Virus record (IMG/VR): IMGVR_UViG_3300010376_000866
Location: 1 to 27,400 of that record
Length of the DNA stretch: 27,400 nucleotides
From: a virus
Lineage: Duplodnaviria; Caudoviricetes
Strand: one strand, 5' to 3'
Part shown: piece after piece, positions 1 through 23,098 of the stretch
Layout: every line of letters begins with the position of its first letter
How positions within the stretch are numbered: the stretch's first letter is position 1
Notes under the pieces: generated by a model
What the model saw: the letters and a program-made list of their open reading frames with translations, nothing else
Databases searched by the model: none
Told to the model about the DNA's origin: nothing
Position numbers and translations under genes: made by a program

Positions 1-578
1 CGCAGGAAGCCACTGCGGAGGTTCTCGGCGTTCATGAACCAGTTGAGTTCCTCCGCGTGAGCAGCCATCCAGTTCTCGAACTTGTCACGCTTGGTAGCCT
101 CGCGCTTGAGTTCGAGCTTCTCCTGCGCCACGCGGTACCTGGCGACCTCAGCCTCGAACAACTCCCGGTGGTCCAGCATGTACTGGCGCGTCCAGTGGTC
201 GCCGTGGTTGATGCCTCCGCAACCGCATGAGCAGAATCGCCCACGCGCCGCACGGCACTGGCTGTCACAGTCGAGCGTCGTGTCAACTGCGATCAGCTTC
301 TCTCCCAGGATTTCATGTTCCTGGTCTGGTCCGCCGATGAAGCAGAGGACACGGCTGTGCTTCGGGGCCAGGTGCGGGTACAGGCCCAGCTTGCTCTCGC
401 GTACTGGGACGTTGTGAACGTCGCATACCCCGAGATAGATCGTGGTCTGAGTGGCGTCCGTACTCGCATGGGCTGACCGTCGCACCTGCCTGTCGCCAAG
501 GTGCAGCGTCTCTGAGTCGGCCGTGTAGCTTGAACCATACATGCCTTTGGGTGTCATGGTCCGATAGGTGCTGCTCAT
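1..578 (-). CDS. Hypothetical protein with Cys/His metal-binding motif (partial, runs off window)
   Basis: Not in ORF track; hand-translated from ATG 578 after GGGAGAGGAGCCCAAG: MSSTYRTMTPKG...CDSQCRAARGRFCSCGCGGINHG...; open to window edge. Confidence 0.85.
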   Translation of the reverse strand, partial: MSSTYRTMTPKGMYGSSYTADSETLHLGDRQVRRSAHASTDATQTTIYLGVCDVHNVPVRESKLGLYPHLAPKHSRVLCFIGGPDQEHEILGEKLIAVDTTLDCDSQCRAARGRFCSCGCGGINHGDHWTRQYMLDHRELFEAEVARYRVAQEKLELKREATKRDKFENWMAAHAEELNWFMNAENLRSGFL

Positions 579-666
579 CTTGGGCTCCTCTCCCTAGGCG
601 TAAGCAGACCCCGCAACCTACCCTACCCGCGCGGGGCCGGGGCAGGGTAGGCTCCGGGCATGCTCA
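579..666 (-). promoter_or_regulatory. Intercistronic RNA module E1 (long hairpin plus SD hairpin)
   Basis: Minus strand AGCCTACCCTGCCC pairs with GGGTAGGGTAGGTT (2 G-U); flanks TGAGCATGCCCGG/GCGGGGTCTGCTTA. Confidence 0.75.
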
Positions 667-852
667 TCCGTAGTTGATCTTCTGATTGTAAGCGGACCAG
701 CCGTTGGGTCGGCCCTGGCCGGTACGCCTCTCGCGTTCCCGCCAATAGCGCTTGCTTTCTGCTGTGTTCCAGGCCTGGCAGAGCGGGCACCGACACTTCC
801 AGTATCGGTACCCGCTCCTGGTGCCGTGCCTGATATTAGCGGTTGGGGTCAT
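664..852 (-). CDS. Small HGT-x-CRC-x2-C zinc-binding phage protein
   Basis: RHGTRSGYRYWKCRCPLC motif; overlaps the stop of the upstream gene. Confidence 0.8.
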   Translation of the reverse strand: MTPTANIRHGTRSGYRYWKCRCPLCQAWNTAESKRYWRERERRTGQGRPNGWSAYNQKINYG

Positions 853-1267
853 TGTAGTACCCTGGCCTTATGGCCAGAATACCATGTATGACGCTCTCGA
901 TGGCCTCTGGGTCCAGCCATGTCTCGAACTTCATGACCACATCAGTGATCTCGTCTGATAGCACAGAGCGGAAGGCAGCGATGACGTGGCCTTTGATGCT
1001 GTGAAATCCGTGTCCGTTCGGGTTGTCATTATCAGCGCCGTACTTCTCCACCTGCTCCAGGACTTCCATGTACACTTCAGGAGGTACCATTGGTGCACCA
1101 GAATCAGTCTTGTAGGCAGCTTTCAGCGCTGCCAGGAAAGCAGACTTGGCCAGCCCGAGGGTCGTGGTATTGGCCCCGCCTGCATCTGCAATCGATGCCA
1201 GATAGAAGTCTCCAGCCTGCTGGGCTAGGTTCTCCTTGGGCGTAAGCCGCTTGTCGGTTAGATCCAT
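836..1267 (-). CDS. Hypothetical protein (143 aa)
   Basis: Start moved to ATG 1267 after GATGGGAAGGAGCCCATC. Confidence 0.8.
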   Translation of the reverse strand: MDLTDKRLTPKENLAQQAGDFYLASIADAGGANTTTLGLAKSAFLAALKAAYKTDSGAPMVPPEVYMEVLEQVEKYGADNDNPNGHGFHSIKGHVIAAFRSVLSDEITDVVMKFETWLDPEAIESVIHGILAIRPGYYNDPNR

Positions 1268-1362
1268 GATGGGCTCCTTCCCATCCCGTGCGCTAGCTTC
1301 TGTAACTAGCACCGGCAGCAGAGGCAGGGATTACCGGCCCTGCCCCGCTGTCTCGCGCTACT
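1268..1362 (-). promoter_or_regulatory. Intercistronic RNA module E2
   Basis: CGAGACAGC-GGGGCAGGG...CCCTGCCTCT-GCTGCCGG hairpin, alternative hairpin GTGCTAG/CTAGCGC, then SD hairpin. Confidence 0.75.
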
Positions 1363-1633
1363 CACATGTGCAGCATGGTTGCGGCACCGTTGGCTCTCCG
1401 TACAGGAGAGCGTCCGGCTCTGGGTCGATCATGGTTGGCTCGATACCTGGCAGGTGACAACCGCACTCACACGGCTCACCAGGCTCATCACGCGGGTCAG
1501 TGATGCACTCCCAGCAACCGCAGCCGGGCTTATGCTCATCATTAGGAGGCCAAAGGATTGAGCGGCATCCTGTTGGCCCCTGGTGCGGATAGGTGCCCAG
1601 GCAGTACGGGCACTGCTCAACCTGGTTAGCCAT
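1358..1633 (-). CDS. Cys-rich hypothetical protein (91 aa)
   Basis: MANQVEQCPYC...CGCWEC...CECGCH...CCTCE; start overlaps the upstream gene end. Confidence 0.7.
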   Translation of the reverse strand: MANQVEQCPYCLGTYPHQGPTGCRSILWPPNDEHKPGCGCWECITDPRDEPGEPCECGCHLPGIEPTMIDPEPDALLYGEPTVPQPCCTCE

Positions 1634-1808
1634 GAAGATCTGGGATGAGGAGGATGAACGGTGACCCATCATTGATCAGCGGATCGCTCTCATCGGTCAC
1701 CTCGATGACGGGCTTGGGACCTTTTGGAGTATCGACATACACCGGCAGGTGATCGCCGTACTCCTCTTCAATTGTCCCCTTGACCTGGGCGGCTGTTAGT
1801 GGTGGCAT
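1626..1808 (-). CDS. Hypothetical protein (60 aa)
   Basis: ATG after ATGGAAGGAGTCCATA. Confidence 0.8.
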   Translation of the reverse strand: MPPLTAAQVKGTIEEEYGDHLPVYVDTPKGPKPVIEVTDESDPLINDGSPFILLIPDLHG

Positions 1809-1890
1809 TATGGACTCCTTCCATCCGGACTCACTGTGAGCCGGCAGCTACCCTCCCGGCCCCTGTGTCGGGAGAGCGCTGTCTCGCTAG
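1809..1890 (-). promoter_or_regulatory. Intercistronic RNA module E3
   Basis: GCGAGACAGC-GCTCTCCCG...CGGGAGGGT-A-GCTGCCGGC; alternative hairpin CCGGCTCAC/GTGAGTCCGG; SD hairpin. Confidence 0.75.
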
Positions 1891-1893
1891 CAG

Positions 1894-2097
1894 CTAGTCT
1901 GCGCAAGCGAAGTGCTTGGGATTGGCGAAGTAGTTGAACGGACAATCTGAGTTGTAAGACGGCTCATAGGTGATTGTCCACTGGTACGAGACGTACCTGG
2001 TGTGATGGAAGTGCGCTGACACCATCATGCTGGTAACCATCACCGCGAAGCAGAGGATGAACCACATCAGCAGCTTGCCGAGCAGGTCCCTGTTCAT
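1894..2097 (-). CDS. Small membrane protein
   Basis: Hydrophobic N-terminus LLGKLLMWFILCFAVMVTSMMV; ATGA overlap with the upstream gene. Confidence 0.7.
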   Translation of the reverse strand: MNRDLLGKLLMWFILCFAVMVTSMMVSAHFHHTRYVSYQWTITYEPSYNSDCPFNYFANPKHFACAD

Positions 2098-2333
2098 AGC
2101 TTCTGATCGAACTCCTGTCCCAGAGTCTGAACGATCAATTCATTCATGCTGGCGTGAGCCGCCTTGGCCGTTCGGTCGGTCTTGCCGGTGATCTGGTTTG
2201 CCAGCTTGATCATGCTGGTACCACGGCTCAGTACCATCCCGGTACGCACCTGCGTCCGCAGGCCCATACGTATGGTAAGCCATCGAGCCGCCTCGATCTT
2301 CTCTGGCGTATCCAGAACGAATCCTTCTGACAT
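2094..2333 (-). CDS. Hypothetical protein (79 aa)
   Basis: ATG 2333 after ATGGGAAAGGAGCCCATA. Confidence 0.8.
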   Translation of the reverse strand: MSEGFVLDTPEKIEAARWLTIRMGLRTQVRTGMVLSRGTSMIKLANQITGKTDRTAKAAHASMNELIVQTLGQEFDQKL

Positions 2334-2421
2334 TATGGGCTCCTTTCCCATGGGCTGCTTCCTAAGCAGTCCCCGCTACCCTCCCCCGCCGGAATCCAGG
2401 GAAGGGCACCGGGCGTGCTCA
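2334..2421 (-). promoter_or_regulatory. Intercistronic RNA module E4
   Basis: TGAGCACGCCCGG-TGCCCTTCCC...GGGGGAGGGTA-GCGGGGACTGCTTA (flanks nearly identical to E1); alternative hairpin CTGCTT/AAGCAG. Confidence 0.75.
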
Positions 2422-2439
2422 GAACACGCGGTCTGGCTA

Positions 2440-2580
2440 CTAGACGAATGCGATAAAGTTGAACCCCTTCCATATGCCATAGTAGCACCAGAGGAGGATC
2501 ATGTTGACTAGGTTGCTGACCGTAACGGCCATCCGAACCATGAAGGTTATGGTACAACCTAGGCAACCGTGGCTGTTCAC
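2440..2580 (-). CDS. Small hydrophobic protein (46 aa)
   Basis: Below track cutoff; GTGA overlap; MNSHGCLGCTITFMVRMAVTVSNLVNMILLWCYYGIWKGFNFIAFV. Confidence 0.55.
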   Translation of the reverse strand: MNSHGCLGCTITFMVRMAVTVSNLVNMILLWCYYGIWKGFNFIAFV

Positions 2581-3587
2581 TCCACGCCCTTGCGACCGGA
2601 GTCACCGGCCGCTCTGTGGACGTGCAGGTTCAGCTCATTGGCCCGATCCACGCCACGCTGGTACGCGGTCATGTTCGTCTCGGGCCGCCGGTAGATACGA
2701 CCAGGAGGGTGCTGACGGCAGTGACCCGACGGGTTCGACTGGCATCGTGGGCAGGGTGGAGGTGGAGTCCAGGTTGACGTCCTGAACAAGTCCTCATTCT
2801 GCTCCCGGAAGAATGCCTCCAGGCTATCCGTCTGGCCATGCAGGACCAGCTCATACCCGACAGGCCGCTCACGCTCTGCCTCGCGCAGACGCTGCTCGAT
2901 GCGGTCGGTGTAACCGTCCGCAGCTGAGCTCCGGTAGGTGGCGGTACCCCCAGCAGCTATCCTGGGAGCATTCTCGCCAAGAGCAGCGGCCGCCCGGTAG
3001 CAGGCACGCTTGAAGCTAGAGCCGACACGGCCCTCAGTGGACTCCTCCAGAACCGTATAGCTCTGAGGGTCCCTGCGCTCCCAGATTGCCTTCTGCCCGG
3101 ACTTCTCACCATACCGGCGACTCCAGCCTGCTTCCTGCGCAATCTGAAGCCAGTTGTAACCGGCCTCATGCAGGTTGTAGCTGTTCGCGTCCACGGACAG
3201 GCTCGGGTCCCACTTGGGGGCCAGGACCTTGACCATGTGGAGCATGGTCTCTGTGTACAGCAACTCAAAGAAGCGCAGATCTGACTCAAAGCCATAGATC
3301 TTGCTCTTCGGGTAGCTGTGGCGGACCTTGCACCGGCAGTGCTTCGCCAGGTGATCGATCACCCAGGACACGAACATGACGTCTGGACGTTCGATCAGGA
3401 TGACCTCAGGCTTGCTCTTCTCAGCCTCGGGCCGGGACTCGTTGAGCAGAGCCTGGTCTATGGCGTACTTGAGCATCAGAGCATCAGCTGCACGCTGAGC
3501 CTGGGCCTCCTCCTCCGGGGTACACCCGTTCTCCACTGTCTTGGAGACCAGGCCTCGCACCTTCCGCAGGACATCCGACAGTTCCAT
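2577..3587 (-). CDS. DUF2786-domain protein
   Basis: N-terminal KVRGLVSK...TPEEEAQAQRAADALMLKYAID is the DUF2786 pattern; later IYGFESD and AYQRG..RA motifs; SAS-type SD. Confidence 0.8.
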   Translation of the reverse strand: MELSDVLRKVRGLVSKTVENGCTPEEEAQAQRAADALMLKYAIDQALLNESRPEAEKSKPEVILIERPDVMFVSWVIDHLAKHCRCKVRHSYPKSKIYGFESDLRFFELLYTETMLHMVKVLAPKWDPSLSVDANSYNLHEAGYNWLQIAQEAGWSRRYGEKSGQKAIWERRDPQSYTVLEESTEGRVGSSFKRACYRAAAALGENAPRIAAGGTATYRSSAADGYTDRIEQRLREAERERPVGYELVLHGQTDSLEAFFREQNEDLFRTSTWTPPPPCPRCQSNPSGHCRQHPPGRIYRRPETNMTAYQRGVDRANELNLHVHRAAGDSGRKGVE

Positions 3588-3700
3588 TGTGGGCTCCTTT
3601 CCCGCCTGGGACTGCTTGTAACCGGGGCAGATACCCCGGCCGCTACCCTACCCGCTCCCGCTCGCGCGGACGAGGGTAGGGCACGGTCTGAGGGACCTAC
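3588..3700 (-). promoter_or_regulatory. Intercistronic RNA module E5
   Basis: TGCCCTACCC...GGGTAGGGTA hairpin; alternative hairpin GGCCGGGG-TATCTG-CCCCGGTT; GGGAAAGGAGCCC. Confidence 0.75.
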
Positions 3701-3996
3701 TTAACGCACCCGTCGCGGCCGTGATGGTTCCTGGCCTCGGTCGAGCACTTCGGGCACGGCTGGAACCGTGTCTCATACCGTTCCGTCAGCCGGAAGCGGC
3801 GAATCCACTTGACCCTGTTGGCCCAGGTGAATGCCGGCTGCCCGACCATCTTGCGAGCGGTCTTCATGGTGTTATTGCGGACATCGTCCAGGACCAGGCC
3901 ACAGAAGGTCTGCTTGCCAAAGTCATGGATGGCGTGGCTGTAGGTAGCGTTGGGGGTTGCCACCCAACAGCCTGGCCAGATGTCAATCTGATCCAT
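3697..3996 (-). CDS. Putative zinc-binding protein (H..CG...CPKC, 99 aa)
   Basis: ATG 3996 after TGGGAAAGGAGTCCCA; SHAI..TFCG and PCPKC motifs. Confidence 0.75.
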   Translation of the reverse strand: MDQIDIWPGCWVATPNATYSHAIHDFGKQTFCGLVLDDVRNNTMKTARKMVGQPAFTWANRVKWIRRFRLTERYETRFQPCPKCSTEARNHHGRDGCVK

Positions 3997-4096
3997 TGGG
4001 ACTCCTTTCCCAGGGCTGAGATGCCCCGGCAACCTGCCTGCCCTCTTCCCAGGTTTCTACATCCCTGGAGGGGAAGGTAGGCTGCCGGCTGTCTCA
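3997..4096 (-). promoter_or_regulatory. Intercistronic RNA module E6
   Basis: CCGGCAGCCTACCT.../...AGGCAGGTTGCCGG long hairpin closed by TGAGA/TCTCA; alternative hairpin CCGGGGC/GCCCTGG. Confidence 0.75.
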
Positions 4097-4399
4097 GAAA
4101 CAGCCATCTCCGGTATTGGGCTTGCCGCCAATTTCCAGCAGCGTACCCTCCGGAATGACCAACTCGCCGAAGTGAATCAACTCGGCTAGCTGCATGAAGT
4201 CCTCACGCTCTTCAAGTACTTCATTGATCAGGAGTATGTCCTCGCCATCCTCCTGGGTGTCGCCGAAGATCCATCCTAGGCGTACACACCGGACGCTCAC
4301 GAATGAGGCTACCAGGTAGTTCGCCAAGTCTGGGTCCGGCTGGTAGATGATAACCGGCTCCGGATTATCGCCGACGATCCAACTGAGGTCAGTCGTCAT
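4094..4399 (-). CDS. Acidic hypothetical protein (~101 aa; start 4399 or 4420)
   Basis: C-terminal part of track ORF 4094..4540; start overlaps the end of the leader ORF at 4389-4439. Confidence 0.7.
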   Translation of the reverse strand: MTTDLSWIVGDNPEPVIIYQPDPDLANYLVASFVSVRCVRLGWIFGDTQEDGEDILLINEVLEEREDFMQLAELIHFGELVIPEGTLLEIGGKPNTGDGCF

Positions 4400-4439
4400 C
4401 GCAGAAATCCGATCGGTCATCTGTAAACTCACAACGCAT
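4389..4439 (-). CDS. 16-aa leader ORF MRCEFTDDRSDFCDDD
   Basis: The ATG directly after the SAS-type SD CTGGGAAGGAGCCTAGG opens this frame, not the long downstream frame. Confidence 0.45.
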   Translation of the reverse strand: MRCEFTDDRSDFCDDD

Positions 4440-4607
4440 CCTAGGCTCCTTCCCAGGGTCTTGCTTCCCGGCCCGAACGCCGGCAGCAGGAACCGGGGGT
4501 TGCCGCCCCGGCCGTCGCGACTCGGCACACCCCACAACAACGACTCTTCCCAGAGTCCCCTATGCGGCTATGCCCCCAGTCCCTACTGTCTAGATTCGGA
4601 TGGGTTT

Positions 4608-4736
4608 TCATCGATGTAGCCATACCATCAGGTGGTACAGGCGGAAGGTCGGGCCGGGTCCGATGACGTCGGCCGGTGAGCCGACGTACAAGGACACGTG
4701 CTGGACCAGGTACACCAGTACCAGGATCAGTATCAC
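4608..4736 (-). CDS. Small membrane protein (42 aa)
   Basis: GTGA overlap; MILILVLVYLVQHVSLYVGSPADVIGPGPTFRLYHLMVWLHR. Confidence 0.5.
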   Translation of the reverse strand: MILILVLVYLVQHVSLYVGSPADVIGPGPTFRLYHLMVWLHR

Positions 4737-4870
4737 TTGCCCACCACGATCGGGTGGATGTAGCGGTCCACGGTGAGGACAGCGCCGAAGCAGACACCCT
4801 TGACATCCTGGAGGATGACCACGGGGCCGTTGGTGCCGACGCCCAGCTCAGGGGACATGATCCTTGCCAT
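4733..4870 (-). CDS. Hypothetical protein (45 aa)
   Basis: MARIMSPELG... after AGGGAAAGGAGCCCAAA. Confidence 0.7.
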   Translation of the reverse strand: MARIMSPELGVGTNGPVVILQDVKGVCFGAVLTVDRYIHPIVVGK

Positions 4871-5062
4871 TTTGGGCTCCTTTCCCTTCTGGCTCTTTTC
4901 TTGGCTGGGGTACCCAGGCCAGCAGTGGTTGCGGGGACTTACGCATTTCGCCCACGGCAGCCCCTTGCGCTGCCTCGTAACTAATCGCCACTGCTGGGGT
5001 CTGAGTACCCCTCGCTGCCCTCCCCCTCGCGCGGGAGGGGAAGGGCACCGGGCTAGCACTCA
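4871..5062 (-). promoter_or_regulatory. Intercistronic RNA module E7 (extended, multibranch)
   Basis: TGAGTGCT..TGCCCTTCCCCT/AGGGGGAGGGCA..GGTACTCA hairpin overlaps a second structure GGGGTACTCAG..CCAGCAGTGG/CCACTGCTGG..CTGGGTACCCC. Confidence 0.75.
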
Positions 5063-5263
5063 GGCTACATGTAGAACCAGGTTGGGCCTAGCACACCGGG
5101 CGCAGAGGCAGCCGCCGCTCCCTCGCGCCATCTCGTACCGGAAGCGGCGATCCACCTCATGGGTGAGCTTGCTGGCCCGCTGGACGCTAATACCCAGCTC
5201 AGCAGCTAGCTCTCGCTCAATCCGGCTGCGGACAGATTCCGTGACTACACGGTTCGCGGACAT
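5060..5263 (-). CDS. Hypothetical protein (67 aa) with C-terminal CxCxxC
   Basis: ATG after TGGAAGGAGCCCAT. Confidence 0.75.
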   Translation of the reverse strand: MSANRVVTESVRSRIERELAAELGISVQRASKLTHEVDRRFRYEMARGSGGCLCARCARPNLVLHVA

Positions 5264-5296
5264 ATGGGCTCCTTCCAGGTCCGCTTGTTTCTTGCG

Positions 5297-5357
5297 CGCG
5301 CGGGGCCGGGGTCGAACCGGCCGCCCCTCCCGGAAGGGGAGGGGCCGCCTGCCGCGC
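5297..5357 (-). ncRNA. Minimal tRNA-like element (no true D-arm or anticodon)
   Basis: GCGCGG-CAGGCG-[GCCCCTCCC/GGGAGGGGC]-GGCCGG-TTCGACC-CCGGCC-CCGCGC: 6+6 bp acceptor/T helix with a TTCGA loop. Confidence 0.65.
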
Positions 5358-5364
5358 TATCTCC

Positions 5365-5814
5365 CTAGGCCGCGTTGACCCCGGAGATCTTTCCGGCCCA
5401 GTCGCTCCGGGCCGGAACAGGAATGGCACCTTCCGGCCAAACCCCACCGACCGGAAGGTAGTGGAGGATCTGGGCGGCCCATGCCAGCGCCGCGTCGCGG
5501 CCGGCAAGGTCGGTACCACGGACCTTGAGGGCGAATCCCTCAAAGGTCGAATCGGGCATGGCCTTGAGGGCGTCGCCCGCCGCTACGATCATCGCGCGAG
5601 CCAAGGAGTTCTTGGTCTCGTTGACGTTGACCTTTGGCTCCTTCGGAGCGGCCGGGACGCGGCCGGTTCCCTTGGCGCCGCTCGCCTTGATAACGGCGGC
5701 CATAGGGTCCGTAGCCGGAGCGGCCGGGGCCGGGGCGGGCGTACGGGTACCGGTGCCACGCCGGTTGCTTTTCGGGGCGGCCGGGGTAGCGGTTGAACGC
5801 GTGCGAGTAGCCAT
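5365..5814 (-). CDS. First gene of leftward operon; basic Ala/Pro/Thr-rich N-terminus (149 aa)
   Basis: ATG 5814 after TGGTAAGGAGACCAAA; codons avoid CAG/CTG over most of its length. Confidence 0.8.
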   Translation of the reverse strand: MATRTRSTATPAAPKSNRRGTGTRTPAPAPAAPATDPMAAVIKASGAKGTGRVPAAPKEPKVNVNETKNSLARAMIVAAGDALKAMPDSTFEGFALKVRGTDLAGRDAALAWAAQILHYLPVGGVWPEGAIPVPARSDWAGKISGVNAA

Positions 5815-5865
5815 TTTGGTCTCCTTACCAATAGCTACCAAAGGTCCCGGCGGTTACCGGGTCCG

Positions 5866-5986
5866 TGGACGTCCTAGGGGTCGAACCTAGTCCGAAAGGA
5901 GCGGAAAGGCCAAAACGCCCGGCCCGCCCCGGAACCGCTATTTGATCCGGGTAGGAGTCGGGACGCGCGCTTATTCCAAAACGTCC
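5866..5986 (-). ncRNA. tRNA-like element with enlarged interior
   Basis: 5' GGACGTT pairs with 3' GACGTCC(A); T-arm CTAGG-TTCGACC-CCTAG adjoins it directly (7+5 bp); ~90-nt interior with hairpins. Confidence 0.65.
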
Positions 5987-5989
5987 GAT

Positions 5990-6525
5990 TTGAGCTATTT
6001 ACCGAACCCCGCGACGGGTCCGCCCCCCGATACCTCCGGCGCGCCCGGAGCCGCCCGTAGGGGCCGCTTCCGGCTCGTACCCGTCGCTCCCTTCCCTCGC
6101 CCCGGGTCCGGAGATCCCGGCGGCCTAGGCCGCCCGGACGTCTCGCCCGTTTACGCCGATAAGGCCCCTTCGGGGCGGCCCCTCGTATCGCGTATTTTTG
6201 GCTAGGGAGATCGGCTCTAGATCGTAACCGGACCCCTACGGACCCCCTCCCCGCGACGGTCGCCCGGTAGCTCCTTCCCGACGCGGACCCGGCCGCCCTA
6301 GGACGGTCGGGGCCGGTTACGACGGCGAGAGGTTCGCCCCTCGCGTAGGGCCGGGAGATCGGTAACGGACGGCCCGGAAGAGGGGGCCGCGCGCTCCCCC
6401 GAGGGGGAGCGGTACCAAGATCGAGTTAGGTCGAATCGGGGCCGGCGGGGCGGCCCCGCTCGGAGCGGGACCCGGCCGGCGCTCCCTCCGGGCGGTCCGG
6501 AGGGGGACCCCTTCGGGGTCTACCC
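5990..6525. other. GC-rich, hairpin-dense non-coding leader
   Basis: No ATG on either strand; about 10 stems, e.g. GACCCC-GAA-GGGGTC, CGCTCCCC/GGGGAGCG, TCGTAACCGG/CCGGTTACGA, GGCGGCCTAGGCCGCC. Confidence 0.7.
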
Positions 6526-6557: not shown

Positions 6558-7011
6558 ATTTTCCGGAGTTAGCCGAGGTAGATTGTTTAGCGGCGCTAAT
6601 TACTACGCACGGTAGAGTCCTACACTCTAGTAGGAATAGCCTCCGAAGTGCGGAAACGTCTTTAGTTAATTTGCCTACCTAATAAGCCGCGCTAAGCAAA
6701 TTTCGTACGGGTTTAGGTCCTAGCGAGTGTTATCGGAGATAAGTCCGATTGGAAGAGTCCGATTGCTACCCTAGATTCGTCTTCGCCCGGTTAAGTGTTT
6801 AAATTCGGACTTATCCCGATTTGTTATCCATAAGCCTCTGACCTGTGGAAATGGATAGCTCTGGGCAGGGTAGGTCCTAGTACACGAGAGGGGGTACGTC
6901 CATGCAGTGTGGCTCCTAGCCACAGCGAGAGGGTATCCGTGGCTGACCTGTGGCGACGCTCCGGGCCGCTCGGGGGCCGGGGTCGATGGGGTACAAAAGG
7001 TATTTTGCGTA

Positions 7012-7404
7012 CTAGAATACCTAGAATACGAGATAACCGGTATTCTAGCCAGAATACGGGTAATACCCGTAAGGGGGACACTGGTACTGTAATCGTAGTT
7101 TGTAGGTCGAAATAGGACGTAATTCTTGTAGAGGGAGAATGTATACAATACCAGTCTAAACGATCTTGAAATTCTAGTATGTATGCCATTCGGACCTGTG
7201 GGTATATACGATATGCAACCACCAGAATACGGGTTTTCTGGGTCCCTAAGGGGTACTCGTATTCTAGTGGGTGAATACCAGTGCAAACTGGTACTCTGGT
7301 AGCCTAGTATGGTATACCCACCTACACTGGTATCATATAAGTCTTAGGGGACTAGTAGAACCAAAGCTAGAATACCAGTGTAAAAGGGGTAACTGGGATT
7401 CTGG
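7012..7404. repeat. Array of CYAGARTAC(CAGT) repeats, mostly as inverted pairs
   Basis: AGAATAC at 7014, 7023, 7051, 7224, 7369; GTATTCT at 7040, 7259; variants at 7273, 7287, 7325, 7393. Confidence 0.75.
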
Positions 7405-12435: not shown

Positions 12436-12917
12436 GGACGCAAGAGGGCTGGTTCTGCGATCTGAGGTTTGAGGGCTGTGGCACGGACGCACTCAGTGCC
12501 TGGCTCTGTGCCGTAGAACAGATTGAGGTTTCAGCCTGTCGGCCTTGTAGAGAACAGTGGCAGGAGCTAGCCCGTAATGAGCCTGCGCTCCGGGTTCGCT
12601 GCCCACGTTGTGCTGACCGGCAAATCCGCGAGGCAAGGCGGAAGCCACAGGACCCAGGACCGCTTACCGGCCTGGTAGCGAATGCCCTTGATGAAGCTAT
12701 GCGAGTTGAGGGCATTCTTGTAGACGCCCGCATCCGTGTGCTACGCCGTCTGGCCAGGGACGCAGCGTGGCTGAATGGATGGGGGTCCAGTTCGGCGGGG
12801 GCAGCTGCACCTGAGGATGCGGGCCAGCGCGGAATCGTGAGTGCGCCCCCTGTCGAGCCGGTCCTGGGCAGAGGTCGGCTGCCTGGGGCCGGTATGGGAG
12901 CCGCGTTATGCCCGTGA
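12432..12917 (+). CDS. Cys-rich hypothetical protein between terS and terL
   Basis: ATGA overlap; CRPC and CPRC motifs. Confidence 0.55.
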   Translation: MRTQEGWFCDLRFEGCGTDALSAWLCAVEQIEVSACRPCREQWQELARNEPALRVRCPRCADRQIREARRKPQDPGPLTGLVANALDEAMRVEGILVDARIRVLRRLARDAAWLNGWGSSSAGAAAPEDAGQRGIVSAPPVEPVLGRGRLPGAGMGAALCP

Positions 12918-14269
12918 TGCTTGAGCACAAATACGGCCCTCGGGGTGCCTGTAGCGTTGTATTCAAAGCACGGGACCCTGAGGTTCTCATTTCTGGACCG
13001 GCCGGCACAGGGAAGTCGAGAGCATGTCTGGAGAAGCTCAACCTGATGTGCCTCAGCAATCCGGGGATGCGGGGCCTGATCGTCCGGAAGACTGCCACAA
13101 GCCTCTCATCGACTGCTCTCGTTACCTGGAAGAAGTTTGTTATAGCGGAACTCCTCCAGGTGGGAGATGTCAGGTACTACGGTGGCAGCGCTTCAGAGCC
13201 TGCGGCTTTTCTGTACCGTAACGGTTCCAGCGTCTCCATCGCGGGCATGGACAAGCCTACCAAGGTCATGTCATCGGAGTATGACGTCATATATGTTCAG
13301 GAAGCTACTGAGCTAACTGAGACTGACTGGGAGTCATTGATATCCCGGCTCCGTAACTGGGTGGTTAGCTTCCAGCAAATCATTGCCGACTGCAACCCTA
13401 GTCATCCGACGCACTGGCTAAAGTTGCGGTGTGATACCGGCAAGACTCGTATGCTGGAGAGCCGACACGAGGACAACCCGGTACTATTTGATGACGATGG
13501 AGAACTAACCGAGAAGGGTTATGACTACATCGGCAAGCTAGACCGGCTGACGGGCGTACGGAGATTGCGCCTGCGGCTGGGCATGTGGGCGAGCGCTGAA
13601 GGCATCATCTATGAGGACTGGAGTGCCTCCCACATCATTACGCAAATCCCGGCTGGTGACGGTGAGGCGCGTGATCCGTTTGGGGTTCCAATGGCCTGGC
13701 CGCGCATTTGGAGCGTTGACTTTGGGTTTGTGAACCCCTTCGTCCTGCAGTGTTGGGCGGAGGATGGAGATGGACGCCTGTATTTGTATCGTGAGCTGTA
13801 CCACACTCACAGAACTGTGGATGTTCACGCGAAGACGATTCTCAATATTGTTGCTCCAGAGCTTCCTGACGGCCGGCGCGTATGGCTTGAGCCCCAGCCA
13901 GTCGCTGTTGTTTGCGACCATGACGCTGAAGGTCGAGTTGTCCTTGAGCGCGAACTTGGGGTGTCCACACAGGCAGCTCACAAGTCTGTACTTGAAGGCA
14001 TCGACTCTGTACAGGCTCGTATGAAGGATGCGGGCGATGGCAAAGCCCGTGTTTATCTGGTAGCTAACTCCCTCGTGGAACTGGATGAGGAACTGAAGGA
14101 ATCTGGCAAGCCTTCTTGTACGGTCGAGGAAATCCCCGGCTATGTCTGGAAGTCAAATGAGAAGGATGAGCCGCTCAAAGCCGATGACCACGGCTGTGAC
14201 GCTATGCGGTATGCCGTTGCCGACCGCGATTTTGGCATCCGCGCTATCTACAGGAGTTTTTCGGCATGA
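12908..14269 (+). CDS. terL: Terminase large subunit (PBSX/SPP1-like)
   Basis: Walker A GPAGTGKS, Walker B VIYVQEATE, DCNP..HWL, nuclease motifs VDFGF and DDHGCDAMRY. Confidence 0.95.
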   Translation: MPVMLEHKYGPRGACSVVFKARDPEVLISGPAGTGKSRACLEKLNLMCLSNPGMRGLIVRKTATSLSSTALVTWKKFVIAELLQVGDVRYYGGSASEPAAFLYRNGSSVSIAGMDKPTKVMSSEYDVIYVQEATELTETDWESLISRLRNWVVSFQQIIADCNPSHPTHWLKLRCDTGKTRMLESRHEDNPVLFDDDGELTEKGYDYIGKLDRLTGVRRLRLRLGMWASAEGIIYEDWSASHIITQIPAGDGEARDPFGVPMAWPRIWSVDFGFVNPFVLQCWAEDGDGRLYLYRELYHTHRTVDVHAKTILNIVAPELPDGRRVWLEPQPVAVVCDHDAEGRVVLERELGVSTQAAHKSVLEGIDSVQARMKDAGDGKARVYLVANSLVELDEELKESGKPSCTVEEIPGYVWKSNEKDEPLKADDHGCDAMRYAVADRDFGIRAIYRSFSA

Positions 14270-14556
14270 CAGCGATACCACTAATGGCAGTGCCTGAGCA
14301 GCCGGAATCGACCCGGCTAGATCGGGCGGCACGCCGGTTCGCGCGAGCGGGCCGTGCCGGGGCCGTCCTAGCGGCGCGCGTCCTAGGCGCGCGGTCGCGG
14401 GCCGGGATCGGAGCGCTTAGGGAACATCTTTATGCAGCATGCGGGCTAGGGGCGTTCACGGCTGCGGGGTTCGTGCACAGTACCTTTACCGGACTGCTGG
14501 TTCTGGGCGCTTCGTTCCTGGTTTTTGAGTTTAAGACTGAGAGGCCGGAAGACTGA
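14266..14556 (+). CDS. Small membrane protein between terL and portal
   Basis: ATGA and TGATG coupling; two hydrophobic segments. Confidence 0.75.
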   Translation: MTAIPLMAVPEQPESTRLDRAARRFARAGRAGAVLAARVLGARSRAGIGALREHLYAACGLGAFTAAGFVHSTFTGLLVLGASFLVFEFKTERPED

Positions 14557-16034
14557 TGGGCCAGAGTCTTATTGGCAAGGTGTTGAACGCCACTAAGGCT
14601 CCTGCACGTCCAATTCCGTTCAATGACCGGTACAGCGCTAGTCCAGGGGGACTGTTCGGTGCAGGGCCGCAGGATCGGTACACGCAGCTCAATGCCATGT
14701 CTGGACAGGGCACCTTGTTCGCGGTCATCCAGTTGCTGTCTACCGGAGCACAGGCTACTGGCGGCTGGAAACTCTACAGGAAGAATATTGATGGTCGTGT
14801 CCGCTACACTACTTCTGACCGTGGTAGTGATCAGAGGATGGAAGTTCTCAGGCACGCGGCCCTGAAACTTTGGAATCAACCTAATCCCTTTATGACCGGG
14901 CCAGAGTTCCGCGAGATTGGCTGGCAGCATCTCGAACTCGTGGGCGAGTGGTACTGGGTAATGAATCGAGGCGTCAGTGGTAAGCAAGTCCCGACGGAGA
15001 TGTGGCCAGTGCGGCCGGATCGAATGGAGCCTGTCCCTCACCCTAAGAATTTCCTTTCCGGGTATGTCTATACGGGACCGAATGGTGAGCAGGTTCCTCT
15101 CCTTCACTCGGAAGTCATCCAGATCAAATATCCGAATCCAATGGATATCTATCGAGGGCTTTCAGCTGTGCAGGCCCTGCTGGCTGACATTGACAGCGCA
15201 AAATACACTGCGGAGTGGAGCAGGAACTTTTTCCTCAACTCCGCTACTCCCGGCGGAATTGTTCAATTCAACAAGCGACTAACTGATCCAGAATTCAATG
15301 AGTTTGTCTCCAGGTGGCGAGAGCAGCATCAGGGCGTAGCAAGGGGGCATCGTGTTGGGGTTCTTGAACAGGGCGCGGTATGGGTCCCGAACACATATAC
15401 CATGCGAGACATGCAATTCATTGAACTACGACGGCTTGCCGCGAACAACATCCGCGAGGCTTATCGTATTCACCCCAGCATGCTTGGAATGGTCGAGGAT
15501 GTCAACCGGGCGAATGCGGAGACGGCCGAGGAAGTCCATATCAGGTGGCACGAGGTCACAAGGCTGAAGCGGCTCCGGTCGATCCTGAATCACAAGTACA
15601 TGGAGTTTTTCGCCAACACCGATGTAGAGTTTGACTTTGATGATCCATCGCCGGCCAGCGCAGCGGACGCCAATGACGAACTCACGGCTAAGTCAAACGC
15701 GGCGAAACTACTGAGGGAGGCAGGCTGGGACCCGGATGATGTGCTAGAAGTTGTGGGCCTGCCGGCAATGCGATACTCGGGGCCGCCCGCCCCTGCGATC
15801 GGTGGTCAACCCGGTCAGGGCAGTCTCGGCGCACCGGCAGCGCGCCCGGCTCTGCCGGCAGGTCGTAACAACCAGCCTGCTCGTCGGTCTGAGTATGAGG
15901 GGACCGAGGGGGATCAGTCCCAGAATCATAGCCAGAACAAGTGGGACCGAGGCGTGATTGACTTTGATCTCGCGGGCATGCTCCGCGAAAGCGTGCAGGA
16001 CGCCATCCTGCTAAACTCAGTTGGGAGTAGATGA
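14556..16034 (+). CDS. Portal protein, HK97 family
   Basis: L..QPNPFMT..EF, WPVRPDRM, YRGLSAV, NFFLNSATPGGIV, VLEQG motifs. Confidence 0.93.
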   Translation: MGQSLIGKVLNATKAPARPIPFNDRYSASPGGLFGAGPQDRYTQLNAMSGQGTLFAVIQLLSTGAQATGGWKLYRKNIDGRVRYTTSDRGSDQRMEVLRHAALKLWNQPNPFMTGPEFREIGWQHLELVGEWYWVMNRGVSGKQVPTEMWPVRPDRMEPVPHPKNFLSGYVYTGPNGEQVPLLHSEVIQIKYPNPMDIYRGLSAVQALLADIDSAKYTAEWSRNFFLNSATPGGIVQFNKRLTDPEFNEFVSRWREQHQGVARGHRVGVLEQGAVWVPNTYTMRDMQFIELRRLAANNIREAYRIHPSMLGMVEDVNRANAETAEEVHIRWHEVTRLKRLRSILNHKYMEFFANTDVEFDFDDPSPASAADANDELTAKSNAAKLLREAGWDPDDVLEVVGLPAMRYSGPPAPAIGGQPGQGSLGAPAARPALPAGRNNQPARRSEYEGTEGDQSQNHSQNKWDRGVIDFDLAGMLRESVQDAILLNSVGSR

Positions 16035-16037
16035 GAT

Positions 16038-17387
16038 ATGTCTCGTAATACTCCCTGGCGCACCACCAGGTCGCTGATGGCACTCCACAGGGGAGGGCCG
16101 GGCACTGACTGGTACAGAATCAAGAACCAGGTCAGTGGCGGTCCAACCCAGGTGCACATCTACGATGAGATCGGCTACTTTGGCGTCGGTGCCATGGCGC
16201 TGATCCGCGACCTGGCGGACGTACAGGGACCGATCGACGTCCACATCAACTCGCCAGGTGGCGAGGTGTTTGAGGGGCTGACCATCTACAATGCTCTGAT
16301 GCAGCGTAAGGATGTTACCGTCTACATTGATGGTCTCTGCGCTTCCATCGCTTCTGTCATCGCAATGGCCGGTAATCCAGTGCTCATGGCGCGCCAAGGC
16401 ACGCTGATGATTCACGAGGGGCACGCCATGGCTATTGGCAACGCTCAGGACCTTCGGGACCTGGCGGAGCAGGTTGATCGGCAGTCCAACAACATCGCCA
16501 CCATATACAGTGAGCACACCGGCAAGCCAGTTGCTTTCTGGCGTGATCTGATGAAGGCCGAAACTTGGATGTCGGCTGACGAGGCCATCGGCCACGGCCT
16601 GGTTGACAGGCTGGTTGACTCTGGGGCAGGAAGGGTCCCTGCGGCTGTCAGCGACAGCTGGGACCTGAGTCAGTTTCGGAACTCGACCAAGCTAACCAAT
16701 ACGCGTAATGCGGCGAGCCACCCGTATGTCGGCCATAGCGATCACATGCACGAGCCGATGCGGGGGCTCCACTCACACAACCATGCTGCCTTCGGGCACG
16801 AGGATGGCGATGACGGTATCCACAATCACTCGCACAGCCATGACGGAGATGCCTCTCACGGCCACGGTCATGTTACGCATGTACATGATCACGAGCACGA
16901 AGGGGAGCACATCCATGCTCATGACGCGGGCGAGAATGACTGGGGAGAGCACGGTCACGCGCACACGCACCACGCTGGATTCAATGACCATGACGGTGAT
17001 GAGGGCATGGAGAATAAGAACTCCAGTGCCGTATACAACCGTTCCAACGCTCTGCTTTTGGCTAAGTATCCCGAGGCGCGGTTCTATGCCAAGGACTACA
17101 GCCAGGATGAGCGTGACTCTATGGCCAAGTCGGGCGAGGCTTTGTCTGACGGGTCCTATCCCATCAAGACTTGCACGGACGCGCACAACGCCCGGCAGGC
17201 CTATGGGCGTTCCAACGAGGGTGACCGTAGCAAGGTCGCCTCTCACATCCGTAGTCGTGAGAAGGCATTGGGCGGGTGCGGTCGCGAGCCGTTCCAGTCC
17301 GGCACTGACGACTCCACAGACCTGGTCATCGATGACGCCTTCATGACCAGTTTCCAGAACAGCCTACGGGCACTGAGAGGAGTGTAG
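16038..17387 (+). CDS. ClpP-type prohead protease with His-rich insert and C-terminal extra domain
   Basis: VHINSPGGEVFEG, GLCASIAS (Ser), MIHE (His), ETWMSADEA; His tract 16719-16991. Confidence 0.92.
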   Translation: MSRNTPWRTTRSLMALHRGGPGTDWYRIKNQVSGGPTQVHIYDEIGYFGVGAMALIRDLADVQGPIDVHINSPGGEVFEGLTIYNALMQRKDVTVYIDGLCASIASVIAMAGNPVLMARQGTLMIHEGHAMAIGNAQDLRDLAEQVDRQSNNIATIYSEHTGKPVAFWRDLMKAETWMSADEAIGHGLVDRLVDSGAGRVPAAVSDSWDLSQFRNSTKLTNTRNAASHPYVGHSDHMHEPMRGLHSHNHAAFGHEDGDDGIHNHSHSHDGDASHGHGHVTHVHDHEHEGEHIHAHDAGENDWGEHGHAHTHHAGFNDHDGDEGMENKNSSAVYNRSNALLLAKYPEARFYAKDYSQDERDSMAKSGEALSDGSYPIKTCTDAHNARQAYGRSNEGDRSKVASHIRSREKALGGCGREPFQSGTDDSTDLVIDDAFMTSFQNSLRALRGV

Positions 17388-17390
17388 TAC

Positions 17391-18809
17391 ATGGCGCCAA
17401 CCAAGGTCCGGACGGCTGAGGAACTGGAGGATTTCATCTCCGACCCGTCCAACGTCCGGAAGCTCATGAGCGAGCCTGGAGAGTTCAAGAACTATATCCA
17501 GGAGTACGCACAGAGGATCGTGGACCGCGATGTGGCCATGAAGAACCAGGTCACGGAGCAGGTCCAGCTGACCATGCAGGAGTTCCTGCGTGACAACGGC
17601 TTTGAGCGCGAGCGGCGTCTGGACATCAGCAACAATGTTCAGGCCCCCGGCTTCGGCATGGCTAACAACCAGCGGCGTGTCTCGCATGGCAAGGGGGCCG
17701 TCTACAACAAGGCGTCCTACGGCGCCAAGGTCGAGCAGGAGATGGGCTCGGATGCATTCGAGTCTACTGCTGAGTTCTTCCAGGCCTGCTGGCCGCGCTA
17801 TGAGACGCTGCGCAACGCTGAGACACTTGGTCGCAAGCGTGCGGCGGCTCTCAAAATCCAGAACAGCTACGGCTCTGAGGTTCCCGCTGACGGTGGGTTC
17901 CTGATTCCGGAGACGCTGCGATCTGGCATCCTTCAGGTCGCACTGGAGTCGGCGGTTGTCCGGCCCCGTGCGCAGGTCATCCCGATGGACTCGCTCCGTG
18001 TGCCCATCCCGATGATCGATGTGACAAGCAACGTGTCCAGCATCTTCGGAGGCGTGGTTTGCTACTGGACAGAAGAGGCCGCGCAGCTTGTCGAGTCTCA
18101 GGCCACCTTCGGCCGCGTCGTCCTTGACGCCAAGAAGCTGACTGGGTATGCTGAAGTGCCGAACGAGCTGCTTGCGGACGCCCCGGCGTTCTCCAGCTTC
18201 TTCGACAACGTCTTCCCCAGGGCTATCGCCTGGTTCGAGGACATCGGATTCATCACCGGAACCGGCGTGGGGGAGCCTCTGGGCTTCGTCAACTGCCCGG
18301 CTTCCGTCGCGGTTGCTTCTGAGTCCGGCCAGGCCACGAAGACCATCGTCTGGGAGAACATCGTCAAGATGTACGCCCGCATGCTTCCGACGGCTCTGGG
18401 CTCGGCGGTCTGGATTGCTTCCATCGATACCTTCCCTGAGCTGGCCACTATGGCTCTTTCGGTTGGTACTGGTGGCGGACCGGTCTGGATCGGCAACTTC
18501 GCCGGTGGCCAGGGCGGTGCGCAGTCCCCGCCTGTCACGATCCTCGGGCGGCCGGTGTTCTTCACTGAGAAGACCCCGGCTCTTGGCACCACGGGTGACA
18601 TCAACTTCGTGGACTTGTCGTACTACCTCATCGGCGACCGCCAGATGATGCAGACGGCATCGAGCGAGCAGTACAAGTTCCAGAATGACAAGACCGCGTT
18701 CCGTGTCATCGAGCGTGTTGACGGGCGTCCGTGGTTGCAGTCAGCCATCACTCCCCACAACAACAGCACCAACACCCTCACTGCGTTCGTCCAGCTTGCC
18801 AGCCGGTAA
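17391..18809 (+). CDS. Major capsid protein (HK97 fold, N-terminal scaffold region)
   Basis: DGGFLIPE, WTEEA, LDAKKL, GTGVGEPLG, TILGRPV, DLSYYLIGDR, RVDGRP. Confidence 0.95.
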   Translation: MAPTKVRTAEELEDFISDPSNVRKLMSEPGEFKNYIQEYAQRIVDRDVAMKNQVTEQVQLTMQEFLRDNGFERERRLDISNNVQAPGFGMANNQRRVSHGKGAVYNKASYGAKVEQEMGSDAFESTAEFFQACWPRYETLRNAETLGRKRAAALKIQNSYGSEVPADGGFLIPETLRSGILQVALESAVVRPRAQVIPMDSLRVPIPMIDVTSNVSSIFGGVVCYWTEEAAQLVESQATFGRVVLDAKKLTGYAEVPNELLADAPAFSSFFDNVFPRAIAWFEDIGFITGTGVGEPLGFVNCPASVAVASESGQATKTIVWENIVKMYARMLPTALGSAVWIASIDTFPELATMALSVGTGGGPVWIGNFAGGQGGAQSPPVTILGRPVFFTEKTPALGTTGDINFVDLSYYLIGDRQMMQTASSEQYKFQNDKTAFRVIERVDGRPWLQSAITPHNNSTNTLTAFVQLASR

Positions 18810-22390: not shown

Positions 22391-22737
22391 CGAAGGCAAT
22401 CCTGATTGGCATATCGTCTGCTTGCTTTGTGATACTCTTCTGGGTTGGGATGTACTTCCTCTTCAAGGTAACTGGCGGCGAAAATCAGGCCAGTGGGATG
22501 TACGGTTTCACGTCTGGCCCCGGTCCCATGATCCTGACTGCTATCGGGATGGGTTCTATCGTGGGTAGTCTCTGGCACAACCTGAACTGCCATAAGCCTG
22601 GTTGCTGGAACATGGGGAAGCACAAGGTCAACGGGACCCCGTGGTGTAACGTACATCATGAAGAGGCTAGGCACGAGAAGACCCAGGAGCAGCTGCTATC
22701 TGAAATTCTGGAGGTGCTACGTGCCGATAGAGGGTAA
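22387..22737 (+). CDS. Two-TM membrane protein with Cys/His C-terminal motif
   Basis: ATGA overlap; NCHKPGCWNMGKH..WCNVHH. Confidence 0.75.
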   Translation: MTKAILIGISSACFVILFWVGMYFLFKVTGGENQASGMYGFTSGPGPMILTAIGMGSIVGSLWHNLNCHKPGCWNMGKHKVNGTPWCNVHHEEARHEKTQEQLLSEILEVLRADRG

Positions 22738-23098
22738 CAAGACTGGCCATCGCAATATGGCCGTAGTTTGCTGGGTAGCCTCCTGGATTCTGGCTATCGT
22801 CGGGGGCATGCTGTTTGCTGTGTTTGAGAACATTGGATGGGACCGGGGGATCTACTGGGCCCTGACAACTGTTACCACAGTGGGGTACGGCGACATAACT
22901 CCTCACAACTTGATGGGATATGTAATTGCCGACTCGACTATGGTACTGACTATTCCGATCTGGTCTGTAGCCATAGCATTCGCTACCTCGTGGTTTACAT
23001 CCTGGCACATCTGGGATTCTCATGATCAGCAGATTGCTGATCGAAGAAACATGCACGAGCAGACGCAAGCGCACATCTCCTCGGTGGTGAACCCTTGA
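22721..23098 (+). CDS. Two-TM potassium channel (KcsA-like, Ion_trans_2)
   Basis: GGAGG-6nt-GTG; TM1, pore helix IYWALTTVT, filter TVGYGD (22877-22894), TM2. Confidence 0.9.
   Translation: MPIEGNKTGHRNMAVVCWVASWILAIVGGMLFAVFENIGWDRGIYWALTTVTTVGYGDITPHNLMGYVIADSTMVLTIPIWSVAIAFATSWFTSWHIWDSHDQQIADRRNMHEQTQAHISSVVNP

Follow-up and report, generated by a model that had tools for sequence, protein, structure and literature searches.

What is the function of the long, folded spacers that separate the small leftward genes of a tailed phage? The phage is represented by the window, i.e., the whole 27.4-kb stretch analysed here (positions 1 to 27,400 of the IMG/VR virus record IMGVR_UViG_3300010376_000866), in which an array of small genes runs leftward from 5814 to the left edge. 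Seven spacers of this array (E1 to E7) had been predicted to share a design on the minus strand, in which a long hairpin, a mutually exclusive hairpin downstream of it and a ribosome-site (Shine-Dalgarno, SD) hairpin follow one another. The structural premise of this original prediction, two alternative pairings in one spacer, holds, and was replicated out of sample in two other phages. We give about an even chance to the reading that the spacers are modules which process and stabilise mRNA, of the kind found in phages T7 and SP82, with an added refolding step.

Two alternative predicted folds in the spacers

In each window spacer, the core is a hairpin of 13-20 predicted pairs, designated P2 (11-20 pairs across the 11 spacers compared), and its 3' strand carries a bulge or a G.G mismatch 3-7 pairs above the base. 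The segment behind P2 can either pair back with the basal arm a, which gives one long irregular helix (fold A, 22-30 predicted pairs across the 11 spacers), or pair forward into another hairpin, P3 (fold B). The seven structured spacers were confirmed on the minus strand, but the set was not complete, as two extra spacers (Ex and E0) and the start of the first gene have to be added to it. The features are as follows, with open reading frame abbreviated as ORF.

E1, 579-666 (-): stop codon TGA of ORF 664-852 in the basal arm; P2 610-658, not followed by a clear P3; SD hairpin 582-594.
E2, 1268-1360 (-): basal arm with stop codon TAG; P2 1316-1350; P3 1287-1315; SD hairpin of 6 bp.
E3, 1809-1896 (-): P2 1845-1881; P3 1826-1844; SD hairpin of 5 bp.
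E4, 2334-2421 (-): P2 2372-2413, with P3 directly after it; SD hairpin of 5 bp; orthologue of spacer M1 in the relative L194 (below).
DUF2786 gene, 2577-3587 (-): marker for finding relatives.
E5, 3588-3699 (-): precedes the DUF2786 gene; P2 3640-3686; P3 3622-3639; SD hairpin.
E6, 3997-4096 (-): basal arm with stop codon TGA; P2 4030-4084; P3 4010-4029, overlapping the SD hairpin in its 5' arm.
Ex, 4440-4610 (-): long G-U-rich hairpin; second hairpin with the stem letters of the E5 P3; SD hairpin of 6 bp; folding z -3.9.
E7, 4871-5062 (-): basal arm with stop codon TGA; P2 5013-5050; P3 of 11 bp (5001-5011 with 4907-4917) around a branched 79-base insert (4919-4997); SD hairpin.
E0, the first spacer, 5264-5364 (-): weak SD hairpin; can be drawn as a tRNA-like fold; folding z only -1.0.
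SD hairpin of the first gene, 5816-5831 (-): UUGGU/ACCAA flanking AAGGAG.

Compared with dinucleotide shuffles, six of the seven spacers folded with z values of -3.1 to -4.9, and E3 with -1.7. P3 begins 0-2 bases behind P2 in six spacers (shuffle p 0.007-0.09; 3e-5 when combined over all seven), and the predicted downstream hairpin fails only in E1, where none was detected (p = 1). The shuffle p values for the basal pairing of fold A were 0.005-0.045 in five spacers, 0.11 in E4 and 0.30 in E1; because the boundaries of P2 were placed by eye, shuffle p values are biased in favour of the structures. The claim that the pairing works only in the mRNA orientation was borne out by clearly better folding of the mRNA strand in five spacers, but not by E6, which was equal on both strands, or by E3, which was nearly equal. 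Two flank types had also been described: the TGAGCAYGCCCGG type is present in E1 and E4, and the CGAGACAGC type in E2 and E3 and, nearly, in E6, but E5 and E7 match neither exactly. The long hairpin was said to start at or near the upstream stop codon; a working stop lies in or beside arm a in six spacers but not in E4, in which the arm has a TGA 21 bases past the stop at which the upstream ORF actually ends. The predicted energies of folds A and B were within 6 kcal/mol of each other in 11 of 12 spacers, with A favoured in 10, and a piece cut behind P2 is predicted to have 0-2 unpaired 5' bases in all 12.

The same design in other phages

Relatives were sought with 35 aligned DUF2786 proteins, which led to 31 viral and 79 metagenome loci. 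The locus L193, being the window itself, was excluded from all counts, and L195, which is 98% identical to L194, was not counted as independent. L194, with a DUF2786 protein 47% identical to that of the window, has four spacers of the window's design (M1 to M4; combined over the four, fold A has p 0.01 and P3 has p 0.003). Between the orthologues M1 and E4, the flanks are identical but the stem letters differ, and M1 has its own P3. The paralogues M3 and M4, two sequences only, show double changes in three of the five pairs of arm a with its partner a' and in three of the 14 pairs of P2, with P3 invariant. In L284, whose DUF2786-like gene is 27% identical and which has SD hairpins at about 10 starts, both folds were supported in the three spacers tested of nine (p 0.01-0.015 for A and about 0.04 for P3). 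The slot ahead of the DUF2786 gene is occupied by E5 in the window, by M2 in L194 and by N5994 in L284. The design is repeated in three phages with different letters. The purine-rich arm is on the 3' side in some spacers and on the 5' side in others, so the shape is kept rather than the letters.

A full descriptor, comprising two folds, a stop codon and the SD in a loop, was passed by five of the 10 starts in the window array (E2 to E6), four of seven in L194 and three of 25 in L284, as compared with five of 800 in the other relatives and none of 27 on the plus strand of the window. E7 was missed since it exceeds the length limit, and the descriptor had been tuned on the window and L194. The spacers could not be aligned as a family with MAFFT, and therefore neither a covariance model nor a family-wide covariation statistic was obtained; the pair counts for covariation rest on two small alignments. 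The four strain variants inside spacers comprise two that keep a pair, one at an unpaired position and one that breaks a pair. From an nhmmer profile only the SD word was recovered, BLAST against isolated phages gave no homologue of a spacer, and pattern scans of viral contigs gave nothing or chance matches without arrays (80 loci and 10 loci). The relatives found through the terminase (80 loci) and five whole records did not contain an SD-hairpin array.

The double fold could also belong to a self-cleaving or pseudoknotted RNA, in which arm a pairs with the loop of P3 while P3 is closed, and which cuts itself or blocks nucleases by a tertiary fold. The partner of arm a does lie in the P3 loop in E5, E6, M2, M3, M4 and the L284 spacers N5994 and N7470, and the P3 stem is invariant between M3 and M4 while a:a' covaries. 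However, five pairs would be impossible in a five-base loop with P3 closed, the partner lies in the P3 stem in E2, E3, E4 and E7, and there is no conserved unpaired core and no hit at the gathering threshold of Rfam 15, self-cleaving ribozymes included, in the window, seven loci and L284. This explanation is thus extremely improbable. The insert of E7 (4919-4997, minus strand; folding z -1.6) can form a possible 5-pair pseudoknot and gave no match in Rfam or by BLAST. It resembles a hammerhead in layout by eye, but this candidate was rejected, as the hammerhead core is absent and Rfam gave no hit.

A covarying hairpin around the ribosome-binding site

The predicted SD hairpin is present in all seven spacers, but with the SD core in the loop, not in the stem. 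A hairpin of 3-6 pairs with the core in its loop precedes 10 leftward starts, including those of Ex, E0 and the first gene. Among the six sites with a six-base loop, double changes were found in five of the six pairs, a count reached by none of 500 shuffles. All 10 hairpins stand before ATG, and on the plus strand such a loop was found at two of 27 SD sites; the seven matches to the word are all on the minus strand.

A 13-base word at the ribosome-binding site, the start-associated sequence (SAS), has been reported from cluster K mycobacteriophages and the cluster EF Microbacterium phages (PMC3203893, PMC7302621). In the available text of these reports and of PMC12699233, the authors remarked on the symmetric flanks of SAS and left the function open, and in the main text of PMC12699233 neither 'hairpin' nor 'stem-loop' nor 'secondary structure' was found. 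The window word resembles the cluster K and EF SAS in having one orientation and in its location a few bases before ATG, after gaps of more than 50 bases and outside the structural genes. Five of the 10 window sites (E1, E4, E5, E6 and E7) are within two mismatches of the 13-base cluster K consensus (PMC3203893), as judged by eye, and the other five depart from it by compensatory changes in the stem. Unlike the cluster K SAS as described, the window flanks vary with compensatory changes, which indicates a hairpin. The 17-base inverted repeats of the extended SAS (ESAS) in cluster K were judged non-pairing, whereas the upstream stems of the window vary in letters and keep their pairing. A covarying SD hairpin makes the question raised in 2011 about the role of SAS directly testable, whatever becomes of the cut discussed below.

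Several start sites showed related words. At the DUF2786 start of L199 and L229, the 3' half of an E5-like SD word is present without its pairing 5' arm, so the SD hairpin is lineage-specific. AGGCGA, not AGGAGG, is found at the ribosome-binding position of the DUF2786 start in many relatives (L162, L170-L175, L180, L185, L234 and others). In the window, the SD hairpin of Ex heads an acidic mini-ORF of 16 codons (4389-4439, minus strand), which overlaps the start of the next gene, and a word that resembles an SD hairpin but is not followed by a start codon lies at 6266-6282 (minus strand), in a GC-rich region upstream of the array.

Promoters and terminators

The array is set in a tailed phage, as marked by the following genes.

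12908-18809 (+): terminase, portal, ClpP protease and capsid genes, running rightward from 12908.

The best match of the terminase among isolates was Thermobifida phage P1312 (62%), followed by Streptomyces phages, and among the matches listed for the DUF2786 gene of the array, all were from actinophages. These matches suggest that the host is probably an actinobacterium; the single match of a genome scan, in an assembly labelled Planctomycetota, was not used for host inference. The array is probably expressed early, as one long message.

In the 110 loci, the pattern TAGC[GCT]N-gap-TANNNT occurred on the gene strand 128 times with a gap of 17 and 45 times with a gap of 18, as compared with 7-30 times at other gaps, and the opposite strand showed no clear gap peak. 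Such a promoter-like site was located within 150 bases of 23 of 62 DUF2786 starts, that of L194 included, and in none of 204 coding windows. In the loci L162-L271 the motif has the -35-like word TAGCGN in place of TTGACA, often several times per locus. Sites of this family type were found neither at 579-5400 nor before the DUF2786 gene of the window. The promoter of the array may be at the following position or further upstream.

5884-5913 (-): candidate array promoter TTGGCC-18-TAGGTT, a pattern match only.

In the early region of phage phiC31, U-less terminators occur together with phage-specific promoters. The spacers could likewise be U-less terminators, each with a phage-specific promoter behind it, or decayed promoter-hairpin cassettes. 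The relatives are rich in TAGC-17/18-TANNNT sites, 50 of 173 of which (gaps 17 and 18) have the -35-like word in the 3' arm of a hairpin, and E3, E4 and E5 carry GGGTAGC in the 3' arm of P2. However, these three words have no -10, as TANNNT is not found 17-18 bases behind them and is wholly absent from E2, E3, E4, E7, M1 and M4; moreover, the -35-like word is missing where the arms are swapped. The lack of a U-tail, stated in the original prediction, was confirmed, as any eight bases of E1 to E7 hold at most 3-4 T, and mycobacterial RNA polymerase does not stop without a U-tract in the experiments reported (PMC3993855). Termination is unlikely in view of the lack of both U-tracts and downstream promoters. 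From the sequences, the promoter and terminator readings of the spacers are disfavoured, and we consider this explanation very unlikely. The -35-like word of E3, E4 and E5 hints at descent from promoter-hairpin cassettes, which may describe the origin of the modules rather than their job. Those spacers of L284 (4816-11793) that do not have the two-fold module show, near -10-like hexamers, a repeated word containing CTGCAG.

Translation and the two folds

The nearness of arm a to the stop codon raises the possibility of a translation-sensing switch, in which a ribosome at the upstream stop opens a:a', allows P3 to form and alters the downstream translation, decay or access of Rho. Arm a contains a stop, or has one no more than about 10 bases away, in six of seven window spacers, three of four in L194 and both N5994 and N7470 in L284; folds A and B are nearly equal in energy, and fold B was obtained in the folding prediction when 12 bases from the stop codon were blocked. 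Conversely, the predicted exposure of the SD and AUG is alike in A and B for most of 10 spacers and changes in no fixed direction in the rest, and the two-state switch would therefore concern RNA ends more than ribosome access. M2 directly follows a promoter-like site, with the upstream stop about 50 bases away, and hence needs no upstream ribosome, and the placement of the stops may merely reflect compact genomes. By these predictions the spacers are not a simple translation switch, and the translation-sensing explanation is unlikely as a whole, but it could act jointly with cleavage by gating the cut.

Cleavage and refolding as a working model

In the processing reading, fold A would form first, during transcription, and would be nicked once, close to the base of P2 on its 3' side; the host RNase III is the leading candidate enzyme. 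The upstream mRNA would keep P2 as a 3' barrier. The downstream mRNA would refold into P3, leaving almost none of its 5' bases unpaired and thereby hampering RNase J and RNase E. Each piece would then have a uniform start, set by its SD hairpin. In this way, the long message would be converted to pieces of a single gene or a few genes, with a predicted hairpin guarding each new end, and a cut-per-gene layout would replace the many-promoter layout of the relatives. A phage RNase III was not found among the 37 window proteins.

The processing of phage RNA messages has been studied thoroughly in T7 and SP82. The early mRNA of T7 (R1.1 and its kin) and the Bacillus phage SP82 have irregular hairpins between small genes of the same message (PMC1540722, PMC8708148, PMC3867540, PMC4838370), as the window probably does too. 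The predicted helices of the window reach, like those of the signals, 11 pairs or more, and their bulge or internal loop would permit a single cut and leave a 3' hairpin. Eleven pairs is the minimum helix of an RNase III substrate (PMC1540722), and a bulge confines RNase III to a single cut, after which a protective 3' hairpin is left (PMC1540722, PMC3867540). T7/SP82 signals lie between genes of one polycistronic early mRNA. The window spacers are intergenic and co-oriented and have no family-type promoter inside, and the array would probably be one early transcript. Unlike T7/SP82 signals, their stems are GC-rich with E. coli antideterminants, and the G-C-free feature of the proximal box fails; they also have a built-in second fold, which yields a 5' hairpin, and a constant SD hairpin, the host is likely actinobacterial, and the cut is only predicted. 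Since one T7/SP82 feature fails and no Rfam family was hit, we do not file the spacers as members.

Other known systems share parts of the design. The intergenic stem-loops of the cip-cel operon of Ruminiclostridium cellulolyticum signal cleavage and protect both ends of the pieces, but that operon is chromosomal, and a repeated two-state design or SD hairpin does not appear in the available text (PMC10311766). The proposed working mode is like that of the T7/SP82 and cip-cel signals and not of a new kind, with the refolding step added. In the Staphylococcus aureus cspA mRNA, cleavage by RNase III yields a shorter, stabilising 5' hairpin (PMC3386247); this is a single chromosomal leader, whereas the window modules are repeated and intercistronic. 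Streptomyces coelicolor has both RNase III and RNase J (PMC4681348). The literature searched, mostly without subscription papers, contained no description of the three-part module and no paper on RNA processing of phage messages in actinophages.

Several observations weigh against cleavage and refolding. The RNase III rules used here are those of E. coli (PMC1540722, PMC6212723) and may differ in a GC-rich host, for which none were found in the literature. By these rules, the pair next to the originally predicted cut site is G-C in eight of 11 spacers; when the register was aligned on a chosen W-G-C word, the pair next to the cut was never G-C (11 of 11), but position 2 of the proximal box was G-C, an E. 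coli antideterminant, in seven of 11. In several intact spacers the lowest energy is that of fold B, which a ribosome terminating at the stop codon would favour as well, so that fold A may be short-lived. E1 lacks P3, and the pair-breaking strain variant lies in E7, at 5025. The cut-off for P3 in the full descriptor was eased from -4.5 to -4.0 after L284 had been viewed, and in these GC-rich phages a loose two-fold descriptor accepted 106 of 714 upstream regions, so a single spacer proves little.

Some of these points would be expected if no programmed cut were made, and P2 and P3 were passive barriers, similar to repetitive extragenic palindromic (REP) elements, that halt 3' and 5' exonucleases once ordinary decay has cut the RNA, with the message segmented by stability. 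Fold B is often the equilibrium fold, P3 and the SD hairpin would block 5' attack whatever made the end, and the spacers follow the RNase III sequence rules poorly. However, passive barriers do not explain the compensatory upkeep of a:a', which was also supported in the three L284 spacers (p 0.01-0.015), or the recurring bulge in the 3' strand of P2, and we regard this possibility as rather unlikely.

If the processing reading is true, the modules are a portable part guarding both cut ends in GC-rich hosts, and one phage group offers a natural comparison of the many-promoter with the cut-per-gene layout.

Strain variation and probable gene exchange

Repeated hairpin cassettes among small variable genes, with gene loss at the cassette edge, are also known as the promoter early stem-loops (PeSLs) of T4-like phages, and the window resembles these. 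PeSLs hold a sigma-70 promoter and a terminator (PMC2839356), but the window spacers show neither, and the distant relatives of the window phage fit the promoter-cassette layout better. Two features of the window bear on gene exchange.

2427-2431: five-base junction; here the contigs from two other soil runs are longer by about 598 and 46 bases.
3-578 (-): ORF with the body below 513 97.5% identical to a gene of the L194 phage; the start and spacer differ.

At 2427-2431, at the edge of E4, the start of a spacer is fused to the end of a gene in the window, and a spacer-plus-gene unit was thus probably lost beside E4. This extra DNA would agree with spacers that are DNA-level joints for cassette exchange, similar to attC sites or PeSLs. 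The other strain junctions (511-513 and 1537), however, are inside coding sequence with no shared crossover word, so the spacers are not fixed recombination sites. As DNA, most spacers fold about equally on both strands, while the design is SD-linked and strand-specific, and a role as DNA joints is hardly probable at all. Sequence comparison indicates that the junctions at 511-513 and 1537 vary among strains and phages of the same soils, with recent exchange with the L194 phage. The loose end at 513 had been taken for a longer sibling strain; this candidate was dropped, as the end has the sequence of L194, with which the variants next to it agree as well.

Leader and tRNA-like folds

The region upstream of the first gene contains another set of hairpins.

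5867-5920 (-): leader with a T-arm-like hairpin at 5874-5890 and a hairpin at 5891-5905 with the seven-base loop CUCCUUU.

The loop CUCCUUU is complementary to the loop of the SD hairpins. T-loop-like words occur only twice in the window (5874-5890 and 5304-5322), both with full 5-pair stems, and they flank the first gene. The loop UUCGACC is common to the two tRNA-like folds without a D-arm that can be drawn there (5867-5920 and 5298-5357, minus strand). In E0, a 6-bp acceptor-like stem (5352-5357 with 5298-5303) stands next to the T-arm at 5304-5322 with the UUCGACC loop. A 12-pair stack of T-arm and acceptor can be drawn for both E0 and the leader, with no D-arm and no CCA, and the drawing for the leader is 2.7 kcal/mol above its minimum-energy fold. 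ARAGORN called no tRNA at E0 or the leader, neither fold was found in the relatives, and the stability of the 450-base leader was not unusual (z -0.4). The promoter candidate at 5884-5913 overlaps the leader fold, so the two exclude each other for one transcript. A search for relatives of the first gene of the array gave none that were usable.

These elements can be joined into a broader and quite unlikely scheme, in which the phage lineage would have swapped many promoters for one transcript carved by two-state modules, the upstream ribosome gating a single cut that would free a ready-made 5' hairpin. RNase P would act at the first gene via the tRNA-like folds, and an RNA derived from the leader, with the CUCCUUU loop, could silence the SDs displayed in loops by pairing loop to loop. 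Such a scheme would explain the actinophage SAS as hairpins read by an anti-SD RNA.

Other features of the window

Three further regions were noted. A near-perfect hairpin of 17 pairs at 772-835 (minus strand) lies in or over the 62-codon ORF 664-852, and the folding z of this region is -6.3. The region 7000-7400 is non-coding and AT-richer, with short repeated words and a long hairpin at 7208-7281. Among the late genes, the one at 22658-23098 (plus strand) encodes a two-helix ion-channel domain (Pfam Ion_trans_2).

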